64,000 nucleotides of DNA from Schmidtea nova. Taxonomy: Eukaryota. Positions 27,801 through 30,800 of this stretch are shown in pieces. Numbering within the stretch: the first letter of the stretch is position 1; each line of letters opens with the position of its first letter. The stretch lies in NCBI GenBank assembly GCA_044892505.1, contig CM097882.1:376712001-376776000 (forward strand), given 5' to 3'. The translations under genes and the position numbers were made by a program. A model generated the notes under the pieces. That model was not told the origin of the DNA. It searched no databases and saw only the letters and a list, made by a program, of their open reading frames with translations.

Positions 27801-30800
27801 GTTGCGTGATCAAATTATGGGTGCTAATTGCTAGGAACTAGATTCGATTTCTGGGGGATTGACTTTATTTTAACATGGTAAACCAAAAAAGATCAAAACT
27901 AGTTTGCCAAAATAAATAACATTAAACCTTTTAACATTTTAAATAGTTCTTCGTTCCAAAATCACATGAATTAATTTAATTAAGTTAATTTGAAAATTAT
28001 CTAATTGTCAATTTCAGCTTAAATACAATAACTGTAGACAATTCTTAAAAAATTAAATTCTAGATGTCTATAATAAAAAATATTATCGTTTTTCCGAATT
28101 CAGGTGGAAAAAAAGCCATGGAAGAAAGCCATGGAAAAAAAGCCATGGAAGAAAGCCATGGAAAAAATCCAAAAACAATTTAGATAATGTTACAATTATA
28201 AATTCATTTAATGAATATTTAAGTTAAGCAAAGCCATAAAAAAGTATATATACTTTCCGGTATGCTTTGTTACATACACGTAACCATCTAAACATAACTT
28301 AGTATTTCCTTTCTGACTTTCAATAATTTAATATTCCATAATTTAATATTCCAGAATTTTATAATAATAATATATTTATTTATGTTATTCTATTATTTAA
28401 AATATTAAAAATTATGAATCAATGATAAAATGTCTTGAAAATATTTGCTTTTATACAAAAAAGTGAGCAGTGTTAAATGAGTGAATACCCCCCCCCTAAC
28501 CCTAACATATGTGACTTTTATTTCCGTGGTTTTTTTTCTGGCATCCTGTTTTTCCGACTTAAGATTATATTTTGTGTTATTTTCGAAAAAAAAAAAATTT
28601 TTGTTAAATAAAAAAAATGAATTTAGAGTTTAATTTAGTATTTGACCAGAGATAAATGTTGCCTTAACTGTCACGAAACGAAAGAGATGTAATTGATACA
28701 ACTTAATATTTTAAATTTAAATGTTAATCAAATATTTAAATTTAAACTTTCAATAGGTTTTTATTTCTCACAGCAAATTCAAAAATTATTTTTACAAAAA
28801 AATTCGTTAGAAATCTTTACGTCCCACAATATTTAAGGAGCCAAAAGTAGTCTAATTTTTTGATATATTGACTTAAAAGAATTATGTTATATACATGAAT
28901 ACATCATCCTAGACAGGGGAAAAATTTGAAAAGTGAAGTGAAAGTCATTTTTTTACAAGTGTATCTTTAATAGAAATAGTTTAAACAACATTCCCATCCA
29001 TTTTTTTTCTATTTAATACATATTTTAGGCGCTGTCTTTTTAAGGGTTATTTTAAATATTTTAAAAATAACATTTGAAAATATTAGTAGCACAAATTAGT
29101 CTTCAATAGAAAATTTTAAAAAATTTTGTCGGATGACTGTTTGTATTTAAAAAAACAATTAATAAAAGGTAAAGCTTTGTAATATCTAATGTAAAACCCC
29201 AATAGCAGACTAGTTTCGATCTTTTGGCTTTCATCAGTACTATACAGGAGACGCGAAGATTGCTCTTCACACCAGCTAAGTATAAAACAAAGTTGAAAGA
29301 ACTTAATTAAATAACTTTCCTGGTACATTGGATATCACATCACTTTAATATGCAAGGTCTTATGGGTAATCTTTAACTTGCAAACATGACGTATGAACAT
29401 CATATTCACCACTGCTCACTAGTAGTTAAACATAGAAATTATTTGCAAGTGCAATTGACTGCCTTAGCAATCTTCGCGTCTCCTGCATAGCACTGATGAG
29501 AGTCAAAAGCTCGAAACTAGTCTGCTATTGGGGATTTGCACTGGGTATCATAAAGTTTTTTAAATTAGAAAATATTTATTTCTAATCGAAAACTGAGAAT
29601 GAAGATAGTTTAAATTCTACATGAAAAGATCAAAGATGAGCAAAAAGATAACTGATTTTAGCGATAACAAAATATTGTTTTGATTAAGGAAACTAAAAAT
29701 AATAAAGATTAAGGGTGGATAAAAAATTTTAAAAATAAAACAGATGGAATTATTTGAGTATTTGGTAGTTAACTGTTCTATTAGAATTAAATTAAAATTA
29801 AAAGTGAATTTAATTATTAAAGTAATTAAAAGTTGACTGAACAAGATTAAATCCACAATTAAAAATGTATCATAATGTATGATGAACATAACTCCATTTT
29901 CATGACACTGTCAAAAACTTTGCACCTTCAGGTAAAATGGTTATCCATTGCCGATTTAATTGCATTTATGACATTTACTACGAATAAATATTTATTAATA
30001 TAATCCAATGCAGATTTAGTCGAAGCTTTTTTAAAGAGATTTGTATAACGCTGGAATTTAAAATAAAATACGTTTAAAACTCGGGGGAAGACACAATAAG
30101 AGCGAAACTTGGTGGCGAGAAACATATGAAATGTTATTCCTATTATGAAATATTCACGATTTTAGTAAATGCATAACAAAAACCCGAAATTAATTTTTTT
30201 CATGGTCTTGAAAAGAAACGAATATAATTTCTATTGAATTTTACCAGAGAAAATAAATAAATTTTCAAGTAGACAATAGAATAACTTTAAAATCTTATAA
30301 AATTAAAAAGAAAGATTCAAAATTTAGGTTATTTTTGTAGTAAAAAAATTAATTTTTATTTGATAAGTTCAGTTTCAAAATGAAAATTAAAAAGAATTAT
30401 TATATTGTTCCAGAATTATATTAGATGATGTCTTTCCCAAGGGCAGTCTAGATTGTTAGTTTTATAAATAATTAATTCTAATAAATAAATTATTAAATAA
30501 AATTAACAAAAACAATAAATTAATAAAGTGCTCAAATCAACTATAAAATTAACAAAATCAATAAATTGATAAAATAAATCAATAAAAATAAATTTATAAA
30601 ATTTAATCGAAAATAATTATTTTTATCAATAAATAAAAATCAATAAAATAGTAGTATTTTATTGATCTATTTATGTCTTGTAGCAAAATTAAGATTAAAT
30701 TATTGAAATACATCAATAAAATAAAATTAGTATTAAATTAATTTAAAAAGATTAATTTTTAATTATATATTATTATAAAAATTATTATTAGGTTGATCGA

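Follow-up and report, generated by a model that had tools for sequence, protein, structure and literature searches.

The two inverted arms that lie within an intron of a SIK-like kinase gene of Schmidtea nova represent, with a probability that we place at roughly 85%, a single ageing insertion of a 382-bp tandem unit that is abundant and non-coding. The unit carries a canonical type I hammerhead motif together with nucleotides 1 to 17 or 1 to 19 of the host's U1 snRNA and is likely to be a non-LTR retrozyme that a Penelope-like reverse transcriptase copies in trans. The conserved U1 snRNA 5′ end is a feature that we have not found in print for a retrozyme, and the rest corresponds to a known kind of element. 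The literature covered here, mainly open-access main texts, contained no U1-bearing retrozyme or hammerhead repeat.

The window, by which we mean the whole stretch of 64,000 nucleotides that was analysed, contains one arm at 29171-29264 on the minus strand and the other at 29466-29559 on the plus strand. The two share 86% identity across 94 nt (E 1e-26), which agrees with the two inverted arms of about 95 bp proposed in an earlier sequence-only reading, and they form the sole match of such kind in the 64 kb. The placement of the pair in a SIK intron also stands, given that the 13.2-kb intron is flanked by minus-strand kinase exons with SIK3 as their top PDB match and has GT-AG ends that join in frame. 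The 200 bp between the arms had been taken for a spacer; in fact, this is the upstream part of the 382-bp unit (201 nt), and the locus is one ageing insertion made of two 5′-truncated pieces of a single unit, joined at their 5′ ends. The features of the locus, in window coordinates, are as follows.

18998 to 32206, minus strand: host intron of the SIK-like kinase gene, GT-AG (32206..18998)
29118 to 29468, minus strand: left arm, which comprises some 350 bp of the 382-bp unit, runs in the same sense as the SIK pre-mRNA, and has the long 3′ end (about +88 past the cut site)
29196 to 29251, minus strand: host-sense type I hammerhead with an intact core but with pairs 1 and 3 of stem II broken; cleavage predicted after 29208
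29250 to 29273, minus strand: 10-bp hairpin with a GNRA loop, its 5′ strand largely U1 nt 11-19
29265 to 29283, minus strand: U1 snRNA-derived head (U1 nt 1-19), with two changes relative to the matching U1 paralogue
29284 to 29468, minus strand: upstream part of the unit (the former spacer), containing a complement of U1 nt 1-12 that is able to pair back onto the head
29466 to 29468, no strand: 5′-to-5′ inversion joint, at which the arms overlap by 3 nt
29466 to 29559, plus strand: right arm, a 5′-truncated copy that begins just past the U1 head, with the short 3′ end (about +32 to +40)
29479 to 29534, plus strand: intact canonical type I hammerhead, predicted cut after C29522
Parts of the plus-strand hammerhead: stem I 29487-92/29523-28, extension 29479-83/29530-34, core 29493-99, stem II 29500-12, palindromic helix III 29516-21

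By the definitions given in PMC4209133, the modelled fold of both copies is that of a canonical metazoan type I hammerhead, for which cleavage is predicted. The plus copy is fully paired, as had been claimed, with six of six pairs in stem I, four of four in stem II (one of them U-G), an intact core, and a palindromic helix III of 2 bp. In the minus copy, the core is intact and stem I is paired, and the two mismatches reported for stem II are confirmed as a broken pair 1 (A-C) and a broken pair 3 (G-A). The ancestral stem II deduced from the two copies turned out to be the majority form, present in all 22 copies of array L071 that have the exact helix III motif. On the other hand, the description of these hammerheads as minimal has to be revised. 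The minimal hammerhead of Penelope elements has a helix II of 7-8 bp, a helix I of 4-5 bp, and a poorly defined loop 1 (PMC4209133), whereas here helix I consists of 6 bp, a loop, and 5 further pairs, and helix II has 4 bp. The scores for the Rfam HH9 model (RF02275), 20.3 and 14 bits, were far below its threshold of 52 bits. Two smaller observations concern the outer parts of the locus: an 8-nt direct repeat close to both outer ends might reflect duplication of the target, although it is weak evidence in such AT-rich DNA, and a 7-nt stretch after the plus-strand hammerhead (29534-29542) equals the loop of stem-loop II in two U1 paralogues, probably by chance.

Searching the 1.25-Gb genome yielded 421 candidates, of which 40 were scored, and the exact pattern of head plus hammerhead core has at least 3,485 matches genome-wide (reversed control, 0). 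Across loci, the unit recurs in tandem with a period of 380-382 bp, in arrays that reach 23 and more units; in array L071, the 22 listed copies, which are consecutive units, are all identical and have an intact hammerhead. No element ORF was found among the long frames, which leaves the unit protein-free. The circular monomer has a predicted folding energy of -116.8 kcal/mol (z -6.7 relative to 60 shuffles), and the predicted hammerhead dimer, at -34.6 compared with -29.2 for two monomers without helix III, supports the dimer-type action suggested previously. Related copies and compensatory changes had been proposed as a further check, and both exist: in addition to the copies just counted, the run from a second organism discussed below (X8) shows a stem I C-G pair replaced by U-A. 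Copy number, tandem unit, and insertion marks likewise support the idea of a non-coding unit of the retrozyme or Penelope type. Given its canonical type I hammerhead, its palindromic helix III, and its Penelope-type insertion marks, this family of low GC content is likely to be a non-LTR retrozyme. An array of at least 41 consecutive 380-bp units lies at G000:C1:29336485-29351738. A metagenome scan for the U1 head followed by hammerhead core words returned 22 stretches, none with hammerhead stems when read by eye; two of the data sets (L093-L113) hold a multi-copy family whose stretches, 80-87% identical over 1 kb, match the pattern yet are not hammerheads.

The family shares many properties with the non-LTR retrozymes described from metazoans (PMC7229834; preprint 10.64898/2026.07.22.740005), namely non-coding tandem units of 150-450 bp that each hold one canonical type I hammerhead, a low GC content, copies in the thousands, a predicted circle with strong self-pairing, and co-resident Penelope elements. 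It differs from them in that its 382-bp unit carries U1 nt 1-17 or 1-19, in its frequent 5′-joined inversions and one-sided tail, and in the lack of homology to the one Penelope pLTR tested.

The inversions are a general property of the family. Among 61 locus records, 35 hold copies in a single orientation and 26 (24 distinct loci) in two, and in 26 of 26 of the latter the copies are joined via their 5′ ends. Both ends could be placed for 22 distinct pairs, two pairs cut by the locus edge having been set aside, and in 18 of the 22 one 3′ end falls +82 to +122 past the cut site while its partner falls between +32 and +61, the value of +32 being an underestimate for old copies. The same 5′-joined order was seen in a further 11 of 55 stretches with both orientations at the central element, and AT microsatellites often flank the insertions. 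Published accounts of Penelope-like insertions (Craig 2021, PMC8557442; PMC4209133) describe partial tandems, an inverted 5′-truncated copy, a tail of 30-40 bp at one end, and AT-rich or microsatellite targets, all of which the family shares, and the tail has been attributed to two reverse-transcription start sites (Frangieh 2024, PMC11167929). Thus, in its inverted 5′-truncated copies and one-sided tail, the family matches the signature of Penelope-type mobilisation, and its two classes of 3′ ends would predict where reverse transcription starts. What sets it apart from Penelope-like elements is that it has no ORF and that its hammerhead is canonical and not minimal.

It is consistent with this that the genome contains a young intact Penelope with an 844-codon frame (RT and a weak GIY-YIG) and the same insertion pattern as the unit. 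The support for Penelope mobilisation comes from mechanism and not from homology, and the suggestion that the arms are pseudo-LTRs of a Penelope element found no support. A check for linkage to Penelope ORFs found no RT/GIY-YIG frame adjoining the copy in the window. Nor was significant homology seen between the unit and this young Penelope, pLTR included, which is the one autonomous family that was compared. At one locus (L022), a separate Penelope with its own ends lies beside one 382-bp unit. The young autonomous family, which has a period of 2,544 bp, was seen at L074:86-2620 and at G000:C1:6630388-6644384, and its 3′ end has a motif that resembles a minimal hammerhead when read by eye.

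These data are compatible with the following scheme. Multimeric transcripts would be cut by hammerhead dimers into 382-nt monomers, which would be ligated to circles. A Penelope protein would nick both strands of AT-rich DNA and may reverse-transcribe the RNA from two sites that lie about 40 nt from each other, with the resulting pair of truncated copies meeting at their 5′ ends. In the window, the arms are predicted to pair together so that neither hammerhead acts, and the left arm would then decay neutrally. Simple neutral decay of one insertion only loosely predicts the distribution of rare changes over the 86 sites compared, which is 2 in the right arm and 8 in the left (p=0.10). As regards the cleavage step, 8 of 9 retrozyme dimers from Xenopus gave no cleavage in vitro according to a 2026 preprint (10.64898/2026.07.22.740005).

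The U1-derived piece starts 76 nt upstream of the cut site. In young copies, it is an exact match to nt 1-17 of one host U1 paralogue and, in part of the old copies, it matches nt 1-19 of a different one, while the longest U1 match in 2,000 shuffled units was 13 nt. A degenerate whole U1 gene was considered and rejected, as 15 global comparisons gave no similarity past nt 20; among the local comparisons beyond that point, 1 of 15 reached p=0.01, uncorrected. The predicted fold makes the piece the common arm of two hairpins, with nt 1-12 paired to the upstream complement and nt 11-19 starting the GNRA hairpin. Most likely, it was captured through a template switch onto U1 snRNA, as proposed for SINEU, and kept mainly for structure, as that common arm upstream of the ribozyme. 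The host has at least five divergent U1 paralogues (L031, L033, L035, L036, and L037), several of which differ at the end that pairs with splice sites; two of them, and a U5-like gene, lie in tandem arrays of 2.5-2.6 kb.

A more ambitious possibility, which we regard as tentative, is that the head is a functional mimic of U1. The unit would then be a circular-RNA parasite with a switchable head that a hairpin hides in the circle. In linear RNA, or in RNA that starts at U1 +1, the upstream hairpin would open, and the head could pair with 5′ splice sites of nascent host RNA or bind U1-associated factors and thereby favour retention, transcription, or targeting. Such a head would be under sequence constraint across species. 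An argument for this comes from run X8, which represents another organism and in which 1,099 contigs were aligned to the unit. Summed contig depth increases from 275 to 128,360 at the bin that holds U1 +1, 43 contigs diverge just upstream of this position, and the conserved block starts exactly at the U1 head. Listed changes of at least 10% spare the head, whereas the stem immediately above it has turned over and still pairs when read by eye. It also fits that the old and young subfamilies each match their own U1 paralogue. Nevertheless, the conserved block continues through the hairpin, ribozyme, and tail, with four listed changes in about 108 nt (in stem I, U-A replaces a C-G pair in about 99% of the depth, a compensatory change); because the whole block is conserved to the tail, the 19 unchanged nucleotides of the head are not by themselves unusual. 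Moreover, the head is base-paired in the predicted circle, and the forms found in the subfamilies differ by changes that the hairpin tolerates. Should the head be exposed, an abundant RNA could touch host splicing, as the end of U1 that reads splice sites is present thousands of times per genome.

It is more doubtful that the unit captured the promoter and start site of a U1 gene and is transcribed from U1 +1 as an snRNA gene would be. The match starts exactly at U1 +1, and there is a precedent in newt satellite 2 (cited in PMC2220036), a tandem hammerhead repeat of similar size that is tied to snRNA gene biology, as here, and has an snRNA-type promoter. We found an ATG-centred motif at -67 to -74 upstream of 8 of 9 host snRNA genes (7 U1 and 2 U5), which is a candidate proximal promoter element, and used these 8 genes to build a model for a scan that covered nine of ten offsets, all but -15. 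The top match to this motif fell at -65/-66 in two of five copies scanned, and was among the top three in four of five, but in inverted orientation and with scores (9.3-12.2) near the 95th percentile of shuffles (9.9). In sense, the host motif is absent at that offset (-0.6 to 1.7). The link is through a promoter in the newt satellite and through transcribed U1 sequence here. The 5′ ends also speak against transcription from U1 +1, since 0 of 82 lie within 5 nt of it. This last observation likewise separates the family from the SINEU elements of crocodilians (Kojima 2015, PMC4494074), which are also non-autonomous, with U1-derived sequence for which a template-switch origin has been proposed. 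SINEU has a U1/U2-derived head at its 5′ end and is mobilised by Tx1 elements, with no ribozyme reported in the main text, whereas our family has only 17-19 nt, placed inside a tandem unit.

A different question is whether selection removed the activity of the host-sense hammerhead and thereby protected the SIK pre-mRNA, as the sequence-only reading had suggested, which we consider unlikely. Two changes in the left arm do break stem II, and this arm has the larger share of the rare changes given above. However, the core is untouched and damage is not concentrated in the ribozyme, as left-arm changes affect 8 of the 40 G/C sites in the ribozyme arm compared with 16 of the 67 that lie upstream of it (p=0.81). 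Loss of the intact form is also what age brings elsewhere: in 88 scored copies, the hammerhead is intact in 37 of 49 with 0-2 differences and in 0 of 19 with six or more. Retrozymes are reported to be depleted in Xenopus introns (10.64898/2026.07.22.740005), and 5 of 8 likely intronic single-orientation copies in our own sample are antisense, but against 3 in sense this small sample gives p=0.73. It came from 55 stretches in which 300 of 445 candidate frames were scanned; two of the eight copies have exons on both sides, and the two-orientation loci as well as L129, L136, L140, L142, L144, L148, L151, and L160 (captured or processed gene fragments, or outside a gene) were set aside. An intact sense copy is found just upstream of a MORN-repeat exon (L167). 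Finally, the pair is predicted to mask itself. In either transcript, the antisense arm is transcribed first and is predicted to pair with 79-81 of the 87 hammerhead-arm bases, so that 57-59 kcal/mol would be needed to force stem I in the full transcript. The damage to the left arm looks like ordinary decay, and a simple explanation for the tolerance of such insertions in introns would be that inverted pairs silence themselves.

Read on the opposite strand, U1 nt 1-11 gives a consensus 5′ splice donor, and the motif could in principle be no more than a perfect donor of this kind that is U1-like by complementarity. This is very improbable: although Penelope elements carry introns (PMC4209133, PMC8557442) of which it might be a remnant, it would explain 11 nt of a match that extends 6-8 nt further into paralogue-specific U1 sequence, and the Penelope family compared does not have the motif in its body.

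With a retrozyme copied in trans as the preferred reading, the family gives two handles on how animal retrozymes are transcribed and mobilised, namely its Penelope-type insertion marks and its U1 end. Traces of other mobile elements were also seen. Intronless, frameshifted, or chimeric fragments of host genes at L129:2588-3924, L136:7753-8232, L144:6681-8486, and L151:3930-4951 (of the IMD, chaperonin-HECT, tubulin, and helicase kinds) suggest gene capture by another mobile element. In the window, a fragment of a mariner-type transposase (31216-31533, minus strand) lies inside the same SIK-like intron as the arms, and a 331-aa frame with an exonuclease domain (44687-45682, minus strand) is among the further long frames.
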